Of a stretch of DNA of 64,000 nucleotides, positions 1,595-19,032 are shown one piece after another (within the stretch, counting starts at the first letter, position 1; the number at the start of each line of letters is the position of its first letter). The position numbers and the translations under genes were made by a program. Under the pieces are notes generated by a model that ran no database searches, was not told where the DNA came from, and saw nothing but the letters and a program-made list of their open reading frames with translations. This DNA comes from Bacteroidales bacterium (GTDB lineage: Bacteria; Bacteroidota; Bacteroidia; Bacteroidales; UBA10428), in assembly GCA_016935435.1 (NCBI GenBank), contig JAFGQZ010000043.1, forward strand, positions 16,530-80,529, given 5' to 3'.

Positions 1595-3217
1595 ATGAAA
1601 AAACTATTTATTATGTGTTTTGTATTGGCCGTGTTGGCTGGTTGCAATTCAAAACAAGCTGAAAAAGAAACCGATATGCAAAAAAAAGTATCCCAATTTG
1701 CCGGGTTTACACTTACTTCAAACATAAATGATTTATCGGAAAACGATAAACAAATGCTTTTGCTTTTCTTTGATGTGGCCCGTATAATGGATACCCTTTT
1801 CTGGGAACAGGCTTATGGTTCGAGGCTAGAGGCTATTAGATTGGCAAATGGCGATACCCTTAAAGAAAAGTTTATTGAAATAAACTACGGCCCGTGGGAA
1901 AGGTTGAACAATAATATTTCTTTTGTTGCCGGTATTGGGGAAAAACCCGCAGGTGCAAACTTTTATCCCTGCGATATTTCTAAAGAAGAATTCGACAATT
2001 TTGATACGCCCGATAAAACATCGCTCTATACCATTATCCGAAGGGATGAAAACCGGAACCTTGTTTCAATACCTTATCATGTTTATTATAAAAGCCAGCT
2101 CGATAGTGCTTCGCAGCTGCTTAAGAAGGCAGCATTGCTTGCTTCTGACGAAGGTTTAAAAAAATACCTCGAATTGCGGGCAGAGGCGCTCGTTACAAGC
2201 AACTACCTGCACAGCGATTTGGCCTGGATGGACATGAAGTCAAATCGTATCGATTTAGTTGTAGGGCCGATAGAAAATTACGAAGACCAGCTTTTTGGGT
2301 ACAAAGCATCTTTTGAGGCATATATTTTGCTCAAGGACATGGAGTGGTCGAAAAAACTCGAAAGGTATGCAACACTTTTACCCGATTTGCAAAAACGACT
2401 CCCTGTTGATGAAAAATACAAAACTGGTACACCGGGTGCCAGTTCCGACCTGGGAGCTTACGATGTTGTTTATTATGCTGGCGATTGCAATGCCGGGAGT
2501 AAAACAATTGCCATTAACCTGCCCAACGATCCCGAGGTGCACAAACAAAAAGGGAGCCGCCGGTTACAACTTAAAAATGCCATGCAGGCAAAATTCGATA
2601 AGATACTGGTGCCCATATCAAACCTTGTTATTTCTCCTGAACAACAACAGTTTGTTTCCTTTGAGGCTTTTTTCTCAAATACCATGTTCCACGAAGTTGC
2701 ACACGGGCTTGGCGTTTACCAGGTTGTTGACGATACCCTCTCGATAAGCGCTGCGCTTAAAGACAAATATACCACTATTGAAGAAGGCAAAGCCGATATA
2801 CTGGGCCTGTTTCTGGAAGACGAGCTTATTCGGTTAAACGAACTAGGAGCCGACATTCGCGAAAGTTATACTACTTTTGTAGCCGGCATTTTCCGGTCGA
2901 TTCGCTTTGGGGCTGCCAGTGCCCACGGTAAAGCAAATTTAATTAGCTATAATTATCTTTTGGAAAAAGGAGCCTTTAATCGTAACAGAAAAGGCATTTA
3001 TACAGTTGATTACGACAAAATGAAAGCGGCAGTTTCTATGCTGGCCAAAGAAATTATTGAGCTACAGGGGAACGGCAACTATGAAGCAGCCGTATCTTTT
3101 ATCGATTCATATAGCAAGTTCAAACCAGAGCTTAAGGCCGACATCGAAAAGATTAACAACATGGAAATACCTGTTGATATAGTTTTTAACCAGGGGCCGG
3201 CTTATATAGGCCTATAA
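1595..3217 (+). CDS. Peptidase family M49 (dipeptidyl-peptidase III-like) zinc metallopeptidase, predicted lipoprotein
   Basis: 540 aa; lipobox LAVLAGC; GPIENYEDQLFGYKA, KTIAINLPND, HEVAHGLG and EEGKAD motifs. Confidence 0.88.
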   Translation: MKKLFIMCFVLAVLAGCNSKQAEKETDMQKKVSQFAGFTLTSNINDLSENDKQMLLLFFDVARIMDTLFWEQAYGSRLEAIRLANGDTLKEKFIEINYGPWERLNNNISFVAGIGEKPAGANFYPCDISKEEFDNFDTPDKTSLYTIIRRDENRNLVSIPYHVYYKSQLDSASQLLKKAALLASDEGLKKYLELRAEALVTSNYLHSDLAWMDMKSNRIDLVVGPIENYEDQLFGYKASFEAYILLKDMEWSKKLERYATLLPDLQKRLPVDEKYKTGTPGASSDLGAYDVVYYAGDCNAGSKTIAINLPNDPEVHKQKGSRRLQLKNAMQAKFDKILVPISNLVISPEQQQFVSFEAFFSNTMFHEVAHGLGVYQVVDDTLSISAALKDKYTTIEEGKADILGLFLEDELIRLNELGADIRESYTTFVAGIFRSIRFGAASAHGKANLISYNYLLEKGAFNRNRKGIYTVDYDKMKAAVSMLAKEIIELQGNGNYEAAVSFIDSYSKFKPELKADIEKINNMEIPVDIVFNQGPAYIGL

Positions 3218-3254
3218 TACAGGTAATTTTTGTAGATAATTGATGTTTAGCCTG

Positions 3255-3320
3255 TAAAAGCCAAATGTTGGCGCAAAATAGCAGTTGTCTTACTGCCTTT
3301 GCACCAACATTTGGCTTTTA
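3255..3320. terminator. Long hairpin between convergent genes, probable bidirectional terminator
   Basis: 23-bp arms 3255-3277 and 3298-3320 with one mismatch, plus inner GCAGT/ACTGC stem. Confidence 0.7.
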
Positions 3321-3358
3321 TTACCTTGCTTGAATATATGTTAATTTTTTTTCTGTAG

Positions 3359-4117
3359 TTATTTCTGGTTTACAGAGGCAGATGCAATTTTTCTGCAAAA
3401 CTCGGCATCCAACCTGTCGATGTCCATAATTACTAACGACTCGCCTTCTATGTCGTAGATAGTAATGTAGTTGGGTATTTGGCGGGGCATTTCGCCAAGT
3501 ATAGCAGCAACAAAAACACAAGCCGATAAATAGGCGCCCAAAGCCGACTGGTGGCTGCCATCGGAAACATATAGCTGAATGTCGGGGCGAATTTGCTTTG
3601 CCTTTTCCCATGCCTTGCCAACAGGGACTAAAACGGCATTGTTTTCTTTTGCTGCACGGGTATATACATCTTCAATTACATGAAGGTATTGAGGCACTTT
3701 TTCCCTTGCCCAGGTCATATACAAATAAGGTTTTGCACCATGTTTTCGCGCAAGCCCGCAAAACAGCGCGATATATTTCAAAACACTGTCGGGCTGCTCA
3801 ATGGTTGACATACTCTGATCCTGTAAGACAACAATATCGAAATTACCAGTTTCTATGAGTTCTTTGGTATTTAACCCCCTGTTGCCATGCCAGTGTTCGC
3901 TCAACCTAGCCCCACCAACCACACTTTTTCGGGTAACCAGTTTAGTATCTGAACTATCGGATAGAATTGAGACTACCTGGGGTATGTTTTGAACATAGGT
4001 GTAACTGTTCCCAACAAACAAAACCTTTAGCGTATCTTTATCCGAAGGTGCAGAATAGCCTGGTTTTGGGCATAAAGCAATAAGAAAAAAAACGGTTGCT
4101 AATAGTTTTCTTTTCAT
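3359..4117 (-). CDS. SGNH/GDSL-family hydrolase, secreted
   Basis: 252 aa; signal peptide; LFVGNSYT block I, DIVVLQDQS, DGSH block V. Confidence 0.8.
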   Translation of the reverse strand: MKRKLLATVFFLIALCPKPGYSAPSDKDTLKVLFVGNSYTYVQNIPQVVSILSDSSDTKLVTRKSVVGGARLSEHWHGNRGLNTKELIETGNFDIVVLQDQSMSTIEQPDSVLKYIALFCGLARKHGAKPYLYMTWAREKVPQYLHVIEDVYTRAAKENNAVLVPVGKAWEKAKQIRPDIQLYVSDGSHQSALGAYLSACVFVAAILGEMPRQIPNYITIYDIEGESLVIMDIDRLDAEFCRKIASASVNQK

Positions 4118-4422
4118 AAATATTGTTTTGGTTAGTAATAAACAAATGAAGCTAAGCTAAATTACGGCTTTTATTCAGAATTTTTATTTTATAAGCTATA
4201 CGAAGTGCCCTGGATACTACATAAGATTGCTCACCCCCATAAAAAAGCTATTTTTTTTATAGCAACCTCTGCGTTTTTGATTAAAAATTATCCAACAAGC
4301 AAGGTAAAGATTACATGGGATTTATGGCCCTAAAGTTAAATTCTTTCATGCTTACATTTATCATTCCTTTGCAATGAGCAAAAATCTAACTTGGGTTCAG
4401 TATCAAACGATAAAATTGCGAT

Positions 4423-13212: not shown

Positions 13213-15039
13213 TTATAGTGCCTGTTCCAAAACCTTTTTATCGGCACAGGCATTGCTTTTATTTTTCTGAACAATACTGGCAGCAACAACTTCGGAAATA
13301 TCTTTAACCATGATTTTGTTTCCCCTCGCAAAAGTTTTCTTACAAAGGGGGCACGATGTAATTAAACTATCGGGCGAATACTGCAAATATTCATCAAGTG
13401 CATTATTGGTAATTATATCGCGCTCACTCATTTGTATTTTGATGTTCGAAAGGCTTCCCCCGCAGCACAAACTTTTTTCTTTCTCGTTCATTATCGGTAT
13501 CAGGCTGGTATAGTTCGATAATAATTTACGGGGCTTATCGTATATGCCCGAACCCCTTCCTAGCTCACACGGGTCGTGATAAATTGATTTTTCGGAAGTT
13601 AAACGTTTTGGCAATGACCCCATTTGCATTAGCTCAAATAAATATTCGGAGTGATGTTGTACTTTAATGTCTGGTAGGTTATAGTCTTCAATAAAAACTT
13701 TATAACAAATCGGACAAGATACAACGAGCTTTTTGGCCCCCGAAGCCAATATTTTTTGCTGATTGTTTTCGATGAGCACTGCCGCAGCATCGTACTGTCC
13801 GGCCTGCATCAGGGGCCTTCCGCAACAGGGTGCCTTGTGCTCGTCCATAAACCAGTAATCGACTCCGGAATATGCAAAAATCTGTAGCATCGATTTTTTT
13901 ATTGAAGGGGTAAGATGGGTCATACAGCCGGCAAAATAAACCACATCGGCTTGTTTTACCTCTCCACCGGCCAAATAAGAATAAGAAGAATTGTATTGCA
14001 AAGTCGATTCTATGCGCTGGGTAATGCGCAGGTCGATTAGTTCTATGCCCACCGGGCAAACCTGCTGGCATTTGCCGCACAACAGGCAGTTAAACAATAC
14101 TTCGTCGGTAAGGTTTTTATTTCGAATATTCTTCAGTACATAAACCGATTGGGTGTGAATATTGGCCAGGTTTAGCTGGCAGGTATCAAGGCATATTCCG
14201 CAACGCGAGCAGGAAAACACCTGTACCAACGAATAAGTATTAACTCGTTTTTTAAGCCTTACACTATAGTTTCGCAAAAAAATAAAGAATACTTCTGCCG
14301 GTATATGCATATACCTCGAATTGGGCAGGCTGACAAAGAAAAAGCCCAGGGCAAACGAATAAGCTAACCATGTAACCGGTGTTGTTAGTTCAAGTGGCAC
14401 AAAAAGTGAAAACAAGTTTCCTAAGGGTTGCGTAATAATGCCACCATTTTTTAGTTGCCCCGCAGAAAAACTTTCGGCCAGCAACCGTAAAGGAAATATC
14501 AGCCACAACGCTGTCAGGGCTATACGGTCGCCCGATTTCAGCCGTGTAGCTTTTTTCATGCCAAAAAGTTTTTTGTTGAACCTTTTGTAATAGGCAAGCG
14601 AAACACCCGAGAGTACAAAGAGCAGTAATAAATCCATGAGCGATGCAAAAAAATGCATGAAGGGGTATGTTTCGATGCCATCGACAAAAAAACGGAAAAA
14701 AATAGGCAGATAAACCGGAAAAGAGAGGGAACCTTTATAAGCAACGGCTTCGAAATGGCCAAAAACAATAAGCAGGAACCAGCCAAAAGCCAGGCTCATG
14801 TGCATGTAGCCAAGCACCGGGTTTGTGCGGAAAATTTTCCTGTGGAGCAGCCCTTCGCGAAAGGCTTCAATGGCCGAATCGAGGGTTTTGCGCGAGCGAA
14901 GTCCTTTCCATATACGTATTTTGTCGATTTTCGACAGGCCCAGGGTCCATCGCACAAAGCGGTAGAGAACGATTATGGAAAAATATGCCAGCCCGATTAT
15001 AAAAGGCCAGATAAATATTTCGGGCAATAGTTTATTCAT
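13213..15039 (-). CDS. Membrane-bound Fe-S oxidoreductase: NarI/HdrE-like cytochrome b domain fused to HdrD-like 2x[4Fe-4S] and two CCG domains
   Basis: 608 aa; hydrophobic N-half with YMH motifs; CSRCGICLDTC and CLLCGKCQQVCP; GC..CCG..CPIC and PC..CCG..CPLC. Confidence 0.85.
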   Translation of the reverse strand: MNKLLPEIFIWPFIIGLAYFSIIVLYRFVRWTLGLSKIDKIRIWKGLRSRKTLDSAIEAFREGLLHRKIFRTNPVLGYMHMSLAFGWFLLIVFGHFEAVAYKGSLSFPVYLPIFFRFFVDGIETYPFMHFFASLMDLLLLFVLSGVSLAYYKRFNKKLFGMKKATRLKSGDRIALTALWLIFPLRLLAESFSAGQLKNGGIITQPLGNLFSLFVPLELTTPVTWLAYSFALGFFFVSLPNSRYMHIPAEVFFIFLRNYSVRLKKRVNTYSLVQVFSCSRCGICLDTCQLNLANIHTQSVYVLKNIRNKNLTDEVLFNCLLCGKCQQVCPVGIELIDLRITQRIESTLQYNSSYSYLAGGEVKQADVVYFAGCMTHLTPSIKKSMLQIFAYSGVDYWFMDEHKAPCCGRPLMQAGQYDAAAVLIENNQQKILASGAKKLVVSCPICYKVFIEDYNLPDIKVQHHSEYLFELMQMGSLPKRLTSEKSIYHDPCELGRGSGIYDKPRKLLSNYTSLIPIMNEKEKSLCCGGSLSNIKIQMSERDIITNNALDEYLQYSPDSLITSCPLCKKTFARGNKIMVKDISEVVAASIVQKNKSNACADKKVLEQAL

Positions 15040-15376
15040 TTCTAAATTTTACAATTCCTTTTTTTATGAGCATAACCACGTTACGAATATTAATATCGCG
15101 CGGGCAAACCAGCGTACACTTGCCACAGAGCATGCATTTATCGATTTCGCGGGCGAGGCTTTCAATATCGCACCGGCGCAGAAAAAGGTTTATTTTTCGC
15201 ACATTGAAGTCGATAAGGTTACCGGCGCTGCAAGTGGCTGTGCAGCCTCCGCAGGAAATACAGGTAAGGAACGAAGCCTCGTTTTCGAGAACATAACCTA
15301 ACAGGCGGTTGTCGAGCTCCCCAAAATTAACAGTGCGGGTTTCCATAACCGAAAAGCCAAATTTGCCCATTTGCAT
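15032..15376 (-). CDS. Small HdrC-like 4Fe-4S dicluster protein
   Basis: 114 aa; CISCGGCTATC and CMLCGKCTLVCP; TAATG coupling to the upstream gene. Confidence 0.85.
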   Translation of the reverse strand: MQMGKFGFSVMETRTVNFGELDNRLLGYVLENEASFLTCISCGGCTATCSAGNLIDFNVRKINLFLRRCDIESLAREIDKCMLCGKCTLVCPRDINIRNVVMLIKKGIVKFRNE

Positions 15377-16401
15377 TAGTTTTCAATTAAATAACGGTGA
15401 ACTTCAAAAGCTGCCGAGCGGGCATGTTCAATGGTATCTTTCACCGACATGGGGCAGCTGCACGAACCTGCAACAAATATTCCCTTGCGGCTGGTAAGGT
15501 TTCCGGCAAGGTGCACATCGGGTATTTTTAAATAGCCATACTGGTTAAACTCAATGTTGCATGCTTTTCCTATAGCCGTAGTACCAACGCCCGGTTCCAT
15601 TCCAACCAGCAATACCACTAAATCGACATTCATTTTCAACGGCCGCCCCGACAGGGTGTCTTCGGCTTTAATCAGGAGGGAATGGTCGATATTTTCCGAT
15701 ACTTCAGATAATCTTCCCCTGATAAACTGGATGTTGTGTTTTTCTTGTGCTGTTTTATATATTTCTTCATGTTCGAGGCCATGCATCCTTAAATCCATAT
15801 AAAAATTGAATATTTGTGTGGCGGGCAGAAGCTTATTGACTTCAATGGCCTGTTTAACACCTGTTACACAGCATACTTTTGAGCAATAAGTGTTGCCCAC
15901 TTTGGCATCGCGTGAGCCTACACAATGGATAAATGCAATACGCTGCGGGGTTTTACCGGCTAGGGTTGTAAGAGGTGTGCCCGATTTAAGCCGTTTTTCC
16001 AAATCGGCAGAGGTTATTACATTATCGTAAATTTTATAGCCATATTCTTCTTTGCGTTCGGCACTGAACACCTCAAAACCGGTTGCAACAATAACCGCGT
16101 GTGCGCTGTAGCTTACCCCGTGGTTCGATTTCAAAACAAAGCCCGATTTTATGTTCTCGAACGATGCAATGGTTGTATTGGGGAATAAGGTAATGCCTGG
16201 TGTTTTCCCTTTTCGCGAAAGGTAATCTTCGATTTCTTCGGCTTTACGCATATTCGGGAACAGGTGATCCCAGTTTTTAAGTTTGCCACCAAAGTCGGGT
16301 TCTTTTTCAATTACCGAAACTGCGTACCCCAGTTCGGCCAGAATTCCCGAAGCTTCGATTCCGGCAATGCCGCCTCCGATTGTTACTATACTTTTTCCCA
16401 A
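15376..16401 (-). CDS. hdrA: Short HdrA-like FAD/[4Fe-4S] protein lacking ferredoxin domains
   Basis: 341 aa; IGGGIAG Rossmann motif, VIVATG, EYGY, CVGSRD, YCSKVCC, YMDLR; TTG start. Confidence 0.85.
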   Translation of the reverse strand: MGKSIVTIGGGIAGIEASGILAELGYAVSVIEKEPDFGGKLKNWDHLFPNMRKAEEIEDYLSRKGKTPGITLFPNTTIASFENIKSGFVLKSNHGVSYSAHAVIVATGFEVFSAERKEEYGYKIYDNVITSADLEKRLKSGTPLTTLAGKTPQRIAFIHCVGSRDAKVGNTYCSKVCCVTGVKQAIEVNKLLPATQIFNFYMDLRMHGLEHEEIYKTAQEKHNIQFIRGRLSEVSENIDHSLLIKAEDTLSGRPLKMNVDLVVLLVGMEPGVGTTAIGKACNIEFNQYGYLKIPDVHLAGNLTSRKGIFVAGSCSCPMSVKDTIEHARSAAFEVHRYLIEN

Positions 16402-16442
16402 GGGTTATACTGTTTTAATTGTTTTGTTCTTCAAGAGTTTAT

Positions 16443-17507
16443 CTATGCTAAACATGCTGCAACTTCCGGCCGACCAATATATTTTTTGTTTGCGCCCAGG
16501 TATTTGTCTTCGGGGTTATAGGGCACTTTCATTTTATCGAGCAGTGGCTCGCAATCGATTTGGTGCATTTGCAGCCCTAAGTCCCACGGGTTATAACCCA
16601 AAACAAGTCCGGCAAGTTCTTCGTAGGTAAGAACCGGAATGCCTTTTCCATTCTGTCCGTAAGTTTTTCCCTGCATTTCAGCAAGGGTATATTGCCATTT
16701 ATCGAGGAACATATTACAGCCAGGGCAGTTGGCCACAATGGCATCGGGCATGTATGGCTCCATCGACTCAAACTTTTTCTTTGAATTCGATAAGGAATAT
16801 CCCCTGTTCGACTGAACCATATATTGCCGAAACCCAAAGCCACAACAATGCCTCCGTTCGGGATAATCGACCACTTCGCCGCCCCATTCCTCTATCATGC
16901 CGGAAAGCACATGAGGAAATTCTGCTCCGCCAACACCCTTCGAAGGGAACATTTTTGAGTAGTGGCAGCCAATATGTTCAACTATTTTTAAAGGTTTACC
17001 GGTTTGCTTGTTTATCAGCTCAAATTGTTGCTTTTCAGCAATCTCTCCTTTGAATTTATATATTATATCGCTGGCATGGGCAATGTTGGCTGGCACTTCA
17101 AACTCTTTGCCTATAGCTTTTTTAAGGGATTTTCTAACCTTTTCCAGTTCTTCGGGGAATTCTTTCCAGGTTTCGGTAATTTCGGAATAAATGCCAAACG
17201 ATGTAACACACGATATAGCCATGTTTTTATATCCGGCCTCTGTCATTAAGGCGAAATGCCTGGCCACCACAGCCTGTATAGTGTCGAAGGGAACAACATC
17301 GGTATGGTAACCTATACCGGTGCAGGTAGTATGGAGAGGATCGTCGTAAATGTCCTTTCCAAGCTCGTCCCTTAAAATCTTCAAAAAGGTTTTTTCCGAT
17401 GCGGGAAAGAAATTTTGCCTGATACAACTACGCTGGTAATAAAAATGGTCGCAGGCAATTTCTTTCTGGTATTCTCGCCATATATTTCGTTTTCCTTCGG
17501 CTTTCAT
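16443..17507 (-). CDS. hdrB: HdrB-like CCG-domain protein
   Basis: 354 aa; C-terminal HIGCH...HCCGFG...NCPGC domain; N-terminal domain partly degenerate. Confidence 0.85.
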   Translation of the reverse strand: MKAEGKRNIWREYQKEIACDHFYYQRSCIRQNFFPASEKTFLKILRDELGKDIYDDPLHTTCTGIGYHTDVVPFDTIQAVVARHFALMTEAGYKNMAISCVTSFGIYSEITETWKEFPEELEKVRKSLKKAIGKEFEVPANIAHASDIIYKFKGEIAEKQQFELINKQTGKPLKIVEHIGCHYSKMFPSKGVGGAEFPHVLSGMIEEWGGEVVDYPERRHCCGFGFRQYMVQSNRGYSLSNSKKKFESMEPYMPDAIVANCPGCNMFLDKWQYTLAEMQGKTYGQNGKGIPVLTYEELAGLVLGYNPWDLGLQMHQIDCEPLLDKMKVPYNPEDKYLGANKKYIGRPEVAACLA

Positions 17508-18199
17508 ATTTTATCTTCTGCATTAACTTTTTCTATGTATTTATCGATATTGCCATCGGTGCCTTCCAACCCGGCTTCCCGGGCCTTCATGGCACTGAAT
17601 TTCTCAATTTTATCAAATAATAAAGTGCCCCCGGTAACTTCAAAAATAGCCTTTAATTCCCCCAGTACTTCATTGTTTATTTTACGCAATGTTCCGGCCC
17701 CTTCTTTATCAAAGTTTCCACCCATACGTTCGTAAACATCGTTCGGGTTGTTGTAAACCCATTCCCACACAGGCCCCTGTTCGGGGTGCAATTCGGGTTT
17801 AACTATCGATGGATGTATGCAGTAACCTGTTTTAAGAATGGTATCGCCAATGTTGCGCTTAATTAGAATTTGCTGCCTCCCTTTTACACTTTCGGTAAAA
17901 TAACCCAGTTCCTGCGATATCTTTCTTAGCACGTTTATAACCAAACCCGGACAATTATTACGAGGACAGCGGGTTTTGCATGACATGCACTGCCCACAGT
18001 ACCAGATTGTGTCGCTCTTTAACAACTCAATAATAGCTTCTTCGTCGTTCGATTGTACTATTGACACCAGCATGCGCGGATCGTAATCGTAAAATTCGGC
18101 AGCCGGGCAAATAGCCGTGCAAACACCACAATTCATGCAGGCCTTCAGCCCTTCGTGAAAGCGTACATCCTGCTTTAATAAATCAAGGACAATTCCCAT
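17504..18199 (-). CDS. hdrC: HdrC-like 4Fe-4S dicluster protein
   Basis: 231 aa; CMNCGVCTAICP and IWYCGQCMSCKTRCP; 4-nt overlap with the hdrB-like gene. Confidence 0.85.
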   Translation of the reverse strand: MGIVLDLLKQDVRFHEGLKACMNCGVCTAICPAAEFYDYDPRMLVSIVQSNDEEAIIELLKSDTIWYCGQCMSCKTRCPRNNCPGLVINVLRKISQELGYFTESVKGRQQILIKRNIGDTILKTGYCIHPSIVKPELHPEQGPVWEWVYNNPNDVYERMGGNFDKEGAGTLRKINNEVLGELKAIFEVTGGTLLFDKIEKFSAMKAREAGLEGTDGNIDKYIEKVNAEDKI

Positions 18200-18234
18200 A
18201 AATACGACTTTAATTTTGTTTGGGCGAATATTTA

Positions 18235-18273
18235 CAAAGCTATTCTATACCAATTGAGGTGTAAACAGCTCAA
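18235..18273 (-). promoter_or_regulatory. Putative promoter of the hdr-like operon with an adjacent palindrome
   Basis: TAGCTTTG (TAnnTTTG) on the minus strand at 18235-18242; imperfect 20-bp palindrome at 18254-18273. Confidence 0.5.
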
Positions 18274-18319
18274 AATCGTATTTTGGGGTAAGTATTTATA
18301 CTTATAGAGGGTTTGTGGC

Positions 18320-18493
18320 GGTTGGAAGTTCAAGGTTTAAAGTTTAAAGTTTAAAGTTCAAAGTTCAAGGTTTAAAGTTTGAAGTGAGCTGTGAACGGTG
18401 AACAGGGAAAAAAATCATACTTATCATTCATTAATTCTCTTCATTTTCTTCATTTTCTTCATTCACCTCAGCACCAGCCTCAACCTCAGCCTC
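18320..18493 (+). repeat. Composite dispersed repeat, copy 1 (8 heptamers + 37-bp core + 9-mer block + hexamer block)
   Basis: GGTTGG, 8 AAGTTYA-type units at 18326-18381, core AAGTGAGCTGTGAACGGTGAACAGGGAAAAAAATCAT at 18382-18418, TTCATTTTC units, ACCTCA-like units. Confidence 0.9.
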
Positions 18494-18519
18494 TAATTTG
18501 TTGCCGGAGCATTTAGGGA

Positions 18520-19032
18520 CTAAAGTACTTTTAATAATTTTGTGCATTTGTTTTTTAAGCCTGCAGAAGCATCTATTGTAACCGACTCCAAAATAGCCTT
18601 AAGTTCTGGTTTTATTTCGGGGTATTTTTTCACCACTTTGAAAAGTATATCAATAGAAAAAGCCCTTATTGCAATTGCTTCGCCAGGTTCGCTTGCAAAA
18701 CGGAAACAGATATCGGCAAGTTCGCCCAATTGTTCCTCATCGATAAATACCTTTGTTTCCAGAAGGACTTTAAGTGTACAACGTTTCACCCCATCGATTT
18801 TCGACTTTAACAAAGTGTTTATAAGTGTTTGAATGTGTGGCCTTAACATTTCGGGATATTTTTCGGCAGAAAGCTGAACAACCCTGGCCGCCCGCATCGA
18901 AAGCGGATATTTGTCTGCCAGCATTAAAGCCAATGCCTGGTCGAACAATTCCTGGCTTTTGCCTATGTTCGTCACAACAATGTCGGCAATAACTCTCGAC
19001 GAATCAATCAGTTGTTCTTCAATGGCACCCAT
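18520..19032 (-). CDS. Conserved hypothetical all-helical (HEAT/ARM-like) protein
   Basis: 170 aa; LSMRAARV, EAIAIRAFSIDIL, SAGLKNK pattern typical of small Bacteroidota HEAT-like proteins. Confidence 0.6.
   Translation of the reverse strand: MGAIEEQLIDSSRVIADIVVTNIGKSQELFDQALALMLADKYPLSMRAARVVQLSAEKYPEMLRPHIQTLINTLLKSKIDGVKRCTLKVLLETKVFIDEEQLGELADICFRFASEPGEAIAIRAFSIDILFKVVKKYPEIKPELKAILESVTIDASAGLKNKCTKLLKVL

Follow-up and report, generated by a model that had tools for sequence, protein, structure and literature searches.

What does an Hdr-like operon with its own membrane subunit do in a Bacteroidales bacterium? The operon lies in the stretch of 64,000 nucleotides analysed here (the window; contig JAFGQZ010000043.1), and Bacteroidota are, to our knowledge, not producers of CoM or CoB; they use menaquinone, not methanophenazine. 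We put at about one in two the probability that the five genes encode a single membrane-bound, menaquinone-linked complex with a third kind of layout among sHdr-like enzymes. No description of this five-gene complex was found in the literature, and it is apparently unstudied.

The five open reading frames, all on the minus strand, exactly fill positions 13213-18199 in the ORF list (Table 1), C1 and B1 overlapping by 4 nt, B1 and A being separated by 41 nt, and A overlapping F114 by 1 nt and F114 overlapping M608 by 8 nt. By Pfam and NCBIfam, C1 is a Fer4 dicluster protein of the HdrC type, B1 a CCG protein of the HdrB type, A a Pyr_redox_2 protein of the HdrA type and F114 a further Fer4 dicluster protein, and M608 has a hydrophobic N-terminus followed by Fer4 and two CCG domains. 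The flanking genes encode a formiminotransferase-cyclodeaminase, G6PD, 6-phosphogluconolactonase, a cupin, a Memo/AMMECR1 protein, a class A PBP and a 170-aa ORF that matches no family; mvhD, hydrogenase, flx and formate dehydrogenase (fdh) genes are not among them, as the earlier note had stated. That note had also described a self-contained module in which an HdrCBA-type core is joined to a membrane HdrD/E-type protein, a description that is borne out here. A sigma-70 scan of the upstream region (18200-18519) gave no score above chance. On direct reading, the word TAGCTTTG stands at 18242-18235 on the minus strand, ending 35 nt 5′ of the C1 start codon; it is a putative −7 element, TAnnTTTG being what we take to be the Bacteroidetes −7 consensus.

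Table 1. Genes of the operon and the region upstream of it (positions in the window).
Feature	Positions	Strand	Length	Start	Assignment
C1	17504-18199	minus	231 aa		HdrC/sHdrC1-like
B1	16443-17507	minus	354 aa		sHdrB1-like CCG (non-cubane cluster)
A	15376-16401	minus	341 aa	TTG	minimal HdrA
F114	15032-15376	minus	114 aa		ferredoxin, two [4Fe-4S] motifs
M608	13213-15039	minus	608 aa		membrane subunit, Fer4 + CCG
Upstream intergenic region	18200-18519	minus			presumed promoter-bearing

Subunit A (IHCVGSRDAKVGNTYCSKVCCV) combines the GGGIAG motif for FAD binding with a single [4Fe-4S] site (C160, C173, C177, C178), whose four Cys are invariant together with H159 in 79 sequences. Among solved structures, the best match is the short sHdrA from Hyphomicrobium denitrificans (6TJR), which aligns over the full length at E 9e-62; methanogen HdrA cores follow at E 1e-51 to 1e-56. 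The earlier note's likening of this subunit to the short HdrA of sulfur oxidizers is thereby upheld, and its observation that A keeps the FAD site and the CVGSRD/YCSKVCC cluster can be read directly in the 341-aa sequence, which has neither a CxxCxxCxxxC motif nor a ferredoxin domain. A is 43-44% identical to its counterparts in Altiarchaeales and Picosynechococcus, 39% to the methanogen HdrA core, that is, to its thioredoxin-reductase domain, and 34% to 6TJR, so that in overall sequence it has more in common with methanogen HdrA than with type I sHdrA, which runs against an sHdr affiliation; unlike methanogen HdrA, A is without the N-terminal, inserted and C-terminal Fe-S domains. The proposal of the earlier note that A oxidizes NAD(P)H, so that NAD(P)H and menaquinone are coupled to a disulfide, is disfavoured and highly improbable. 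HdrA does belong to the pyridine-nucleotide-disulfide oxidoreductase superfamily according to Pfam, but its sole dinucleotide motif is the N-terminal GGGIAG of the FAD site, and the second dinucleotide position is taken by the invariant cluster motif H159-C160-VGSRD...C173-x3-C177-C178, which leaves NAD(P)H input through HdrA unsupported. The same HCVGSRD...CSKVCC motif aligns in methanogen HdrA and sHdrA, and we know of no direct use of NAD(P)H by either. Methanogen HdrA receives its electrons from Fe-S partners and not from pyridine nucleotides, and the FAD of HdrA-type flavoproteins, as in HdrABC, is accessed via Fe-S clusters and not by soluble substrates.

C1 carries two [4Fe-4S] cubane motifs and a long C-terminal extension, and matches the HdrC model NF041779 (E 2.9e-28), Fer4_8 and the solved HdrC 5ODC_C (E 5e-11). 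All eight cluster Cys are conserved in 100% of 64 orthologs, and C1 is 46% identical to its Altiarchaeales counterpart, 48% to that of a Picosynechococcus plasmid and 27-31% to type I sHdrC1. B1, which with M608 makes up the CCG proteins of the genome, matches HdrB models at E 1e-39. In the alignment to 5ODC_B, all five Cys of its C-terminal CCG site are present (C181, C221, C222, C261, C264), and its N-terminal site keeps three of five Cys (C28, C62, C100), with Thr63 and Ser103 in place of C42 and C81 of HdrB. The derived motifs C-x-TSF-x-x-Y and CCGFGFR are common to B1 and type I sHdrB1, and the site and motif residues are invariant in 68 orthologs. Phylogeny, which the earlier note had named as a check, groups the B1 clade with the sHdr lineage, as sister to the type I sHdrB1 of sulfur oxidizers (SH-aLRT 99). 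Judged from this tree and the common motifs, the core is specifically sHdr-like, a kinship to which the closeness of A to 6TJR among solved structures also points.

F114 is the counterpart of the N-terminal half of HdrC, with two [4Fe-4S] motifs (Fer4_9; HdrC models, E 8e-9). It aligns to the ferredoxin domain of C1/C2 proteins and is without their C-terminal extension; its eight Cys are invariant in 70 orthologs, it is 40% identical to the Altiarchaeales F112, and it stands directly upstream of M608 even in rearranged operons (loci L168 and L169). In M608, five TM helices (approximately residues 8-240) precede an HdrC-like domain, whose two cubane motifs lie at C277-C328, and an HdrD-type domain, in which both CCG motifs (C372-C566) are complete; Pfam places Fer4 at 275-332 and CCG at 366-446 and in a second stretch. 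Its best models are TfrB (E 2e-29), then LdhH, GlpC and DsrK, and it matches Mycobacterium smegmatis EtfD (9OJN) at E 6e-16 and the Altiarchaeales M630 with 38% identity over the full length. In the AF2 model (pLDDT 75.5) the helices span 8-34, 74-102, 128-154, 169-196 and 216-240, and the ferredoxin domain is of low confidence (pLDDT <50 for 262-352). Foldseek places 9OJN at the top for this model (784 columns, E 1.8e-15) and LutA second. Eighteen Cys and three His (H66, H80, H245) do not vary among orthologs, and H95 is kept in only 37 of 68.

M608 is thus a single-chain protein of the EtfD/EMO architecture, which in published structures links a cytoplasmic flavoprotein to menaquinone (bioRxiv 10.64898/2026.08.18.745454; PMC13083937). 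With the ETF:(methyl)menaquinone oxidoreductases (S. aciditrophicus EMO, or SaEMO, and M. smegmatis EtfD, also FadF and DgcB) it has in common the five TM helices, an HdrC-like two-cubane domain, an HdrB-like non-cubane domain, an N-terminus outside and Fe-S domains in the cytoplasm. The invariant H80 and H245 fall at the positions of the proximal-haem ligands H87 and H251 of SaEMO, whereas the distal-haem ligand H233 has no counterpart, position 227 of M608 being an invariant Tyr. The five helices and invariant His agree with the label cytochrome b in the earlier note, and haem binding is predicted from them. M608 is approximately 100 aa shorter than EMO/EtfD; its TM domain has no detectable sequence similarity to theirs and gave no sequence match to NarI either; and its partner is an Hdr-type module, not ETF. 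It also retains ten of ten non-cubane Cys, as HdrD does, with a complete distal site where EMO/EtfD are short of one ligand, and could therefore be a catalytic HdrD-like disulfide reductase and not a wire.

The arrangement is widespread in other Bacteroidota, as the earlier note had supposed. The five genes keep one and the same order in each of 80 related Bacteroidota loci, wherever the contig is long enough, and among 301 genomes of this taxonomic order 108, about one third, encode a homolog of M608. Because the same genes recur in the same order, the arrangement is not due to chance; there is no conserved flanking gene, each other gene family near the operon appearing in at most 11 of the 80 loci. 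Altiarchaeales archaea have orthologs of all five proteins (38-46% identity). The overlapping junctions, the constant order, the Altiarchaeales orthologs and the persistence of F114 beside M608 are consistent with products that form one complex. No characterized ortholog of the operon was found among solved structures or in the literature, which agrees with the earlier note that no substrate had been established.

In such a complex, the cytoplasmic core would be built as in the sHdr of sulfur oxidizers, the active site being the non-cubane Fe-S centre of B1, with two cubanes in C1 and with FAD and one [4Fe-4S] in the minimal HdrA, a dimer. The soluble sHdrC2/B2 arm and the lipoate-binding proteins are missing, and F114 and M608 would form the second arm, M608 contributing two cubanes beside its HdrD-type non-cubane domain and, in a NarI-like five-helix domain, one haem b or more. 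Electrons could then move, in either sense, between a substrate at B1, C1, the [4Fe-4S] and FAD of HdrA, F114, the Fe-S chain of M608, haem b and menaquinone. The substrate is most likely sulfane-level sulfur (persulfide or polysulfide) or a thiol/disulfide couple, and the reaction most likely runs as an oxidation, in which menaquinone would accept the electrons and sulfite may be the product, as it is in sHdr; NAD(P)H would not be involved.

Type I sHdr-LbpA (shdrC1B1AHC2B2) of H. denitrificans, Aquifex and Acidithiobacillus, to which 6TJR belongs, likewise has the order C1-B1-A followed by a second Fe-S arm, a short HdrA with FAD and one [4Fe-4S], and a B1 of the sister clade with a degenerate N-terminal cluster site and CCGFGFR. 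Identity is, however, only 24-31%, B1 is approximately 100 aa shorter here and has CxxC where type I has DxxC in the second site, sHdrH (approximately 289 aa) is absent, and C2/B2 are replaced by F114 and membrane-bound M608. Type II sHdr (shdrC1B1AHB3-etfAB-emo) occurs in Sulfobacillus, Chloroflexota and Actinobacteriota (PMC11094781). It has the same C1-B1-A core with a short HdrA, a second arm consisting of a fused HdrC+HdrB-type protein, and a menaquinone exit via a membrane protein that combines cytochrome b, Fe-S and CCG parts; here, in contrast, sHdrH, a separate sHdrB3 and etfAB are lacking, and the membrane protein belongs to the operon itself, is preceded by a dedicated ferredoxin of 114 aa and has two complete non-cubane sites. 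Since sHdrH, sHdrC2/B2, LbpA, DsrE and TusA are all absent alongside the operon, it is neither type I nor type II. According to published work, LbpA/DsrE/TusA-type partners always accompany sHdr (PMC11094781, PMC6067878). Neither lbpA (a second GcvH of this type included), dsrE nor tusA was found in the cluster or the genome, which contains no sulfur transferase, so that sulfur delivery would have to differ from that of sHdr. Methanogen HdrDE and HdrABC have the same cofactor set, but HdrD and HdrE are fused here, the distal site of B1 is altered and there is no Mvh/Fdh partner. QmoABC also combines HdrA-type flavoproteins with a membrane cytochrome b bearing an HdrC-like domain, and couples a sulfur reaction in the cytoplasm to the quinone pool; it differs in that it has two paralogous HdrA subunits, has neither an HdrB-type CCG subunit nor an HdrD domain, and adjoins aprAB, an arrangement not seen at this operon.

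The opposite direction, in which a menaquinol-dependent reductase would use B1, the complete HdrD-type site of M608 or both to act on a disulfide, persulfide or polysulfide, is unlikely; a low-potential ferredoxin may then feed the HdrA flavin (confurcation), and fermenting Bacteroidales would gain an extra electron sink. HdrDE, of the same architecture, runs in this direction (bioRxiv 10.64898/2026.08.18.745454), bifurcation is known to take place at HdrA flavins (PMC6019823), and M608 has the ten non-cubane Cys of catalytic HdrB/HdrD, one of which the merely conducting EMO/EtfD have lost. The hosts, mostly anaerobes of sulfidic sediments, digesters and guts, would suit it too. Menaquinol (approximately −74 mV) is nevertheless a poor donor for disulfides and polysulfide (approximately −140 to −270 mV) in the absence of added driving force; the minimal HdrA has none of the ferredoxin domains that bear the low-potential branch in methanogens; B1 is in the sHdrB1 lineage, whose characterized members are oxidative (PMC11094781); and the sulfite-consuming cysteate synthase that adjoins the operon in some relatives fits oxidation better.

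We regard as distinctly unlikely the oxidation of an organic acid or small metabolite that feeds menaquinone, with CCG domains that only pass electrons, on the model of LutABC, GlpC, GlcF, LdhH and type E succinate dehydrogenases. The scores of the M608 CCG part against TfrB, LdhH and GlpC, the LutA structural match and the missing sulfur transferases are compatible with it, and the EMO preprint stresses electron transfer as the frequent sole role of non-cubane domains; yet the operon has no dehydrogenase or substrate-binding subunit besides HdrA and B1, HdrA-type FAD is reached through Fe-S clusters as noted above, B1 has the altered cluster site of its sister sHdrB1, and sulfur-amino-acid and sulfonolipid genes neighbour the operon in six relatives. 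Still less probable is that M608 serves as the ETF:menaquinone oxidoreductase of the organism (EMO/EtfD/FadF type), C1-B1-A-F114 being an additional or unrelated input module. M608 has the three-domain architecture of EtfD, its best structural match, etfB-etfA lies on another contig of the genome, and type II sHdr clusters include EMO (PMC11094781); but M608 is always joined to F114 by overlapping codons and never lies beside etf in 80 loci, Altiarchaeales carry the same five-gene set, the complete distal site sets it apart from EMO, EtfD, FadF and DgcB, and most genomes of the order are without it.

For the preferred oxidative reading, sulfonolipid-type neighbours in relatives hint at sulfite. 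A cysteate synthase or ThrC-like gene abuts the operon on the same strand in six genomes of four families, accompanied by a BioF/SPT-family acyltransferase gene in three of the six and also by an SDR gene in two; cysteate synthase, BioF/SPT acyltransferase and SDR are the three kinds of enzyme that make up sulfonolipid synthesis (PMC11211663). A bona fide cysteate synthase is present in 33 of 69 genomes with M608 and in 75 of 232 others, a modest enrichment (odds ratio 1.9, p 0.02) in which phylogeny is ignored. The absence of a NIR_SIR sulfite reductase from the genome of the window also counts for the oxidative reading. The sulfonolipid link cannot be the general role of the operon, because the adjacency is found in only 6 of 108 genomes and no cysteate synthase-like gene occurs in this genome, its genus or its family. 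Other, related clusters with a short HdrA likewise have ties to quinone-linked components, as in type II sHdr: that of the Picosynechococcus plasmid includes an SQR-like FAD protein, and the C1 encoded on the metagenome contig L165 carries a fused membrane domain.

The interval 13213-18199 is filled exactly by five minus-strand genes encoding an HdrC-like protein (C1), an sHdrB1-like protein (B1), a minimal HdrA (A), a small ferredoxin (F114) and a membrane subunit (M608). Neighboring genes overlap by 4 nt (C1/B1), 1 nt (A/F114) or 8 nt (F114/M608), and B1 and A are separated by a gap of 41 nt. A convergent 6-phosphogluconolactonase gene lies downstream, and the flanks in the window consist of unrelated housekeeping genes for formiminotransferase-cyclodeaminase, G6PD, the lactonase, a cupin, a Memo/AMMECR1 protein and a PBP. 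The ORF list, the Pfam and NCBIfam matches and the annotation of these flanks bear out the description, in an earlier note, of a five-gene Hdr-like operon. Upstream of C1 is a 320-nt intergenic region in which, on direct reading of the sequence, the word TAGCTTTG stands 35 nt ahead of the start codon; the region also contains a 7-bp tandem repeat, AAGTTTA, of 8.6 copies with 84% matches (18326-18385) and 3.3 copies of a 9-bp repeat, ATTTTCTTC (18434-18463). A scan for sigma-70 promoters and terminators gave fewer matches than shuffled sequence and was uninformative. Immediately upstream of the operon, a 170-aa ORF (18520-19032, minus strand) matches no Pfam family at E <= 1e-5 and, in the locus comparison, is not kept beside the operon in other genomes.

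Genes of the Hdr-like operon, in order of reading
Gene	Coordinates	Strand	Product	Source
C1	17504-18199	minus	231 aa	ORF list
B1	16443-17507	minus	354 aa	ORF list
A	15376-16401	minus	341 aa, TTG start	ORF list
F114	15032-15376	minus	114 aa	ORF list
M608	13213-15039	minus	608 aa	ORF list

According to Pfam and NCBIfam, C1 is an HdrC-type two-cubane protein, B1 is an HdrB-type CCG protein, A is the thioredoxin-reductase-like core of HdrA, F114 is a two-cubane ferredoxin nearest to the N-terminal half of HdrC, and in M608 a two-cubane domain and two CCG domains come after a hydrophobic N-terminal region. The window's own genome (GCA_016935435.1) has no CCG proteins besides B1 and M608. Cluster cysteines are invariant across 64-79 orthologs of C1 (eight), F114 (eight), A (four) and M608 (18), and ortholog alignments of B1 show five invariant cysteines at the C-terminal site and three at the N-terminal site. 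Among solved structures, B1 and C1 match methanogen HdrB and HdrC. A aligns over its full length with the short sHdrA of Hyphomicrobium denitrificans (6TJR; E 9e-62), which agrees with the likeness to the HdrA of sulfur oxidizers that had been noticed before, and its match to methanogen HdrA structures is confined to the flavin/[4Fe-4S] core. Like short HdrA proteins, A combines FAD with a single [4Fe-4S] site and has no ferredoxin domains.

Electron entry from NAD(P)H through HdrA, as proposed in the earlier note, does not agree with the motifs of A. The FAD motif is at the N-terminus, and the place of a second dinucleotide motif is taken by the invariant cluster site H-C-VGSRD...C-SKV-CC, which is identical to that of methanogen HdrA and sHdrA. 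Because this site is a cluster motif, and because methanogen HdrA and sHdrA get their electrons via Fe-S partners, NAD(P)H input is unsupported. A cysteine of C1 (C127) was also considered as completing the degenerate site of B1; it is invariant in Bacteroidota but not in the proteins of Altiarchaeales, the Picosynechococcus plasmid or type I clusters, and the idea was rejected.

The CCG part of M608 scores with the TfrB, GlpC and DsrK models and not with HdrB. An AlphaFold2 model of M608 from 40 homologs (mean pLDDT 75.5) has five long helices, at residues 8-34, 74-102, 128-154, 169-196 and 216-240, together with a confident CCG domain and a poorly modelled cubane domain. A Foldseek search with this model returned the EtfD structure of M. 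smegmatis (9OJN) first over the full length (E 1.8e-15), followed by LutA and HdrB; the TM-score against 9OJN is low (0.35), because the packing of the domains in the model is uncertain. M608 shares the three-domain single chain of EMO/EtfD (five-helix transmembrane, two-cubane and non-cubane), in which a NarI-like five-helix domain with its N-terminus outside is joined to HdrC-like and HdrB-like domains and electrons pass from a flavoprotein to menaquinone (bioRxiv 10.64898/2026.08.18.745454; PMC13083937). The proximal haem ligands of the EMO of S. aciditrophicus (SaEMO) are H87 and H251 (bioRxiv 10.64898/2026.08.18.745454), and two invariant histidines of M608, H80 where helix II starts on the cytoplasmic side and H245 just past helix V, are putative ligands by their matching positions. 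Only 37 of 68 orthologs retain H95, at the outer end of helix II, so that many M608 orthologs may be mono-haem proteins like EtfD. We infer that M608 binds both haem and quinone.

The five-gene cluster is clearly a relative of sHdr types I and II, though a member of neither. Type I reference clusters were pulled from metagenomes with the 6TJR sequence as query, and one of them, locus L105, reads C1-B1-A-H-C2-B2 followed by a GcvH-like LbpA gene. Identity between the window proteins and type I sHdr proteins is only 24-31%, and B1, 24-27% identical to type I sHdrB1, falls in a separate clade. The B-subunit alignment nevertheless places the derived motifs of sHdrB1 in B1 (C-T for CC, CxTSF and CCGFGFR): at the N-terminal site the second cysteine of CC is replaced by threonine and CxxC becomes CxTS inside a TSF-x-x-Y motif common with sHdrB1, and the C-terminal site is the CCGFGFR common to sHdrB1. 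In a tree of 70 HdrB-type proteins, with canonical HdrB and type I sHdr sequences as references, type I sHdrB1 and its nearest relatives form one group, the sister of which comprises Bacteroidota B1, Altiarchaeales, a Picosynechococcus plasmid and a metagenome contig. Each of these groups and their union have an SH-aLRT of 99 and stand apart from canonical HdrB and sHdrB2. Subunit phylogeny, a check put forward in the earlier note, is less clear for HdrA: in its tree the branch of type I sHdrA is long, and A is 39% identical to the methanogen HdrA core as against 34% to 6TJR.

Several components of sHdr are missing. None of the window proteins corresponds to the ~289-aa sHdrH of loci L083, L105 and L137, and the position of sHdrH is occupied by the unrelated F114; separate soluble sHdrC2 and sHdrB2 are absent, the last gene being a membrane fusion without a BLAST match to sHdrB2. 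No GcvH-like neighbor that could represent LbpA occurs in the best 80 of at least 595 loci, and in the own genome a single full-length GcvH lies elsewhere (contig C47), besides which there is one weak partial lipoyl/biotinyl-type match (23 bits). The DsrE (PF02635) and TusA (PF01206) families have no match in this genome, which is 93.5% complete; control searches gave matches in 10/14 genomes. According to published work, sHdr always comes with LbpA and sulfur transferases (PMC11094781; PMC6067878), and their absence therefore puts the cluster outside types I and II. The etfAB genes characteristic of type II are likewise found in none of the best 80 of at least 595 loci, the etfBA genes of the own genome lying on contig C91 away from the operon, and type II has a fused sHdrB3 with one non-cubane site, whereas M608 is EMO-like with two complete sites.

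Other known systems differ as well. EMO/EtfD proteins work with ETF, and no etf gene lies near the M608 gene in the best 80 loci or the own genome. HdrD and HdrE of methanogens, which use methanophenazine to reduce CoM-S-S-CoB, are separate proteins, whereas the subunits are fused here. QmoABC has two HdrA paralogs and QmoC beside aprAB, whereas the operon has one HdrA and no apr genes in its flanks, and the match of the QmoC model NF038018 is confined to the ferredoxin part of C1, at 41 bits against a cut-off of 300. The operon is a new arrangement of known parts that no characterized system found explains. Full-text searching of the literature found no description of this cluster, a "complete HDR system" being named only in passing in one paper on a Black Sea isolate; the module is widespread and also archaeal, yet it has no name, and no paper or assay on it was found.

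A scan of the genome collection confirmed at least 595 relatives of A, the best 80 of which are all from Bacteroidota (Bacteroidales, Prolixibacteraceae, Lentimicrobiaceae, Gaoshiqia and Mangrovibacterium). Similar clusters had been expected in other Bacteroidota, and the order C1-B1-A-F114-M608 recurs in 80/80 of these best loci wherever the contig permits. When all flanking ORFs of the 80 loci were clustered, no family occurred in more than 11 loci, the commonest being an ArfB-like release-factor-domain protein; ten further neighbors, which include OmpA, a lipid kinase, a sigma factor, a cation antiporter and GH5 and TPR proteins, are unrelated. Directly upstream in 7 of the 80 loci (L001, at 2542-4165, L007, L010, L048, L053, L055 and L056) lie genes for a membrane histidine kinase, by sequence of the HisKA_3 type, and for a response regulator of the LuxR/NarL type, and this pair may be a dedicated regulator of the operon. 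An even sample of the window's order has an M608 homolog in 108/301 genomes and 84/208 genera, that is, ~36% of the sampled species genomes and 40% of the genera, sediment, digester, rumen and gut lineages included. A phylum-wide even sample has one in only 3/401 genomes, the own genome among them, and only 65 of 1.8 billion representative proteins match B1 at E <= 1e-30.

The nearest full-length relatives beyond Bacteroidota are in Candidatus Altiarchaeales, on contigs carrying C1, a NifX-like gene, B1, A, a small ferredoxin, F112 and a 630-aa ortholog of M608. All five window proteins share 38-46% identity with these orthologs, the transmembrane motifs LLHRKIFR and R-Y-M-H-I-P being among the shared residues, and the module has therefore crossed domains. 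At one such locus (L162, Altiarchaeales WOR_SM1, MCBE01000066.1, 4393-12958), a second C1-B1 pair lies upstream, an extra 65-84-aa ferredoxin is present, the NifX-like (Nitro_FeMo-Co) gene stands between C1 and B1, and two nitrogenase-like Oxidored_nitro genes lie alongside on the other strand. Coupling to nitrogenase, an idea drawn from these neighbors, was rejected: M608 occurs in 11/31 genomes of the order with PF00148 versus 97/270 without (no association; odds ratio 0.98), and nif genes are absent from the own genome. The Picosynechococcus sp. PCC 7003 plasmid (NZ_CP016476.1; L081, 7056-12796) has C1-B1-A-C2-B2 followed by an SQR-like flavoprotein gene and lacks sHdrH, and its proteins are 39-48% identical to C1, B1 and A of the window. 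A JGI metagenome contig (Ga0374055_0073639; L165, 1-4875) encodes an HdrC1-type protein whose N-terminal membrane domain has a P-Y-S-K-L-A-H motif (a QmoC-like fusion) and, after A, an SQR-like Pyr_redox_2 protein. These two members of the same clade are also tied to quinone-linked parts.

The most probable reading, with a probability of about 0.7, is an Hdr-type complex in which a redox site in the cytoplasm is wired to the quinone pool. In the type I sHdr model, C1B1 is bound on one side of an HdrA dimer and C2B2 on the other (PMC11094781); by analogy, C1-B1 would sit on one protomer of an HdrA dimer and F114 on the other. B1 would provide the substrate site, and M608 would take up electrons from F114 at its exposed non-cubane end and send them by way of the two cubanes and haem b on to menaquinone. 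Most likely, a sulfane-level sulfur species or a thiol would be oxidized, possibly as far as sulfite. The chances that such a quinone-wired complex acts on a sulfur substrate are about even, and sulfite formation specifically is a more tentative suggestion. The main rival is the reverse direction, in which menaquinol would reduce a disulfide or polysulfide and ferredoxin might take part by confurcation at the flavin. This rival is favored by the HdrD-type site of M608, which is fully intact: EMO and EtfD each lack one ligand of the distal non-cubane cluster, whereas M608 retains all ten cysteines, as do the catalytic HdrB and HdrD. The sHdr systems yield sulfite; the own genome has no NIR_SIR sulfite reductase and four TauE-type matches, which would be compatible with a sulfite-forming role but is no proof of it.

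Taken furthest, the oxidative reading would make the complex a lipoate-independent "type III" sHdr, an anaerobic oxidase of sulfide or sulfane sulfur to sulfite that delivers electrons straight to the menaquinone pool and thence to fumarate, nitrite or low oxygen; this version is doubtful. If true, it would be an unrecognized route by which Bacteroidales and Altiarchaeales respire or detoxify reduced sulfur in sulfidic habitats. A link through the module from sulfur or thiol chemistry to menaquinone, if real, would add a respiratory branch to organisms that are modelled as fermenters with fumarate respiration, and would bear on sulfide turnover in guts and sediments. The module is also a natural experiment on the function of an sHdr-type enzyme without lipoate carriers and on non-cubane clusters of EMO-like proteins as wires or catalysts.

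A further clue to function comes from cysteate synthase, which consumes sulfite as its substrate. Cysteate synthase, called by TIGR03844 above its cut-off, is present in 69 of the 301 genomes of the order, and M608 occurs in 33/69 genomes with the enzyme versus 75/232 without (odds ratio 1.9, Fisher p 0.02, uncorrected for kinship). Direct adjacency to the operon is more telling than this enrichment: in six genomes of four families, cysteate synthase (bona fide in G547 and G406) or a ThrC-like relative (G431, G487, G530 and G613) directly adjoins the operon on the same strand. A gene for a BioF/serine-palmitoyltransferase-family acyltransferase stands beside the synthase-like gene in three of the six (G487, G530 and G613), two of which (G487 and G613) also have an SDR gene there. 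Sulfonolipid synthesis uses these three types of enzyme, synthase, acyltransferase and SDR (PMC11211663). If the "type III" reading is true, the module would, in lineages with these adjoining genes, supply the sulfite that anaerobes without sulfate assimilation need for making sulfonolipids and for which a source is missing, and the possible link would explain the sulfite supply of anaerobes. Such a link cannot be the module's general role, because no cysteate synthase-like gene occurs in the window's own genome, its genus or its family. At two loci of one family (L168, 2283-7166, and L169, 10104-15022), the operon adjoins ThrC-like, BioF/SPT-like acyltransferase and SDR genes and is rearranged to C1-F114-M608-B1-A, F114 still standing with M608 and B1 with A.
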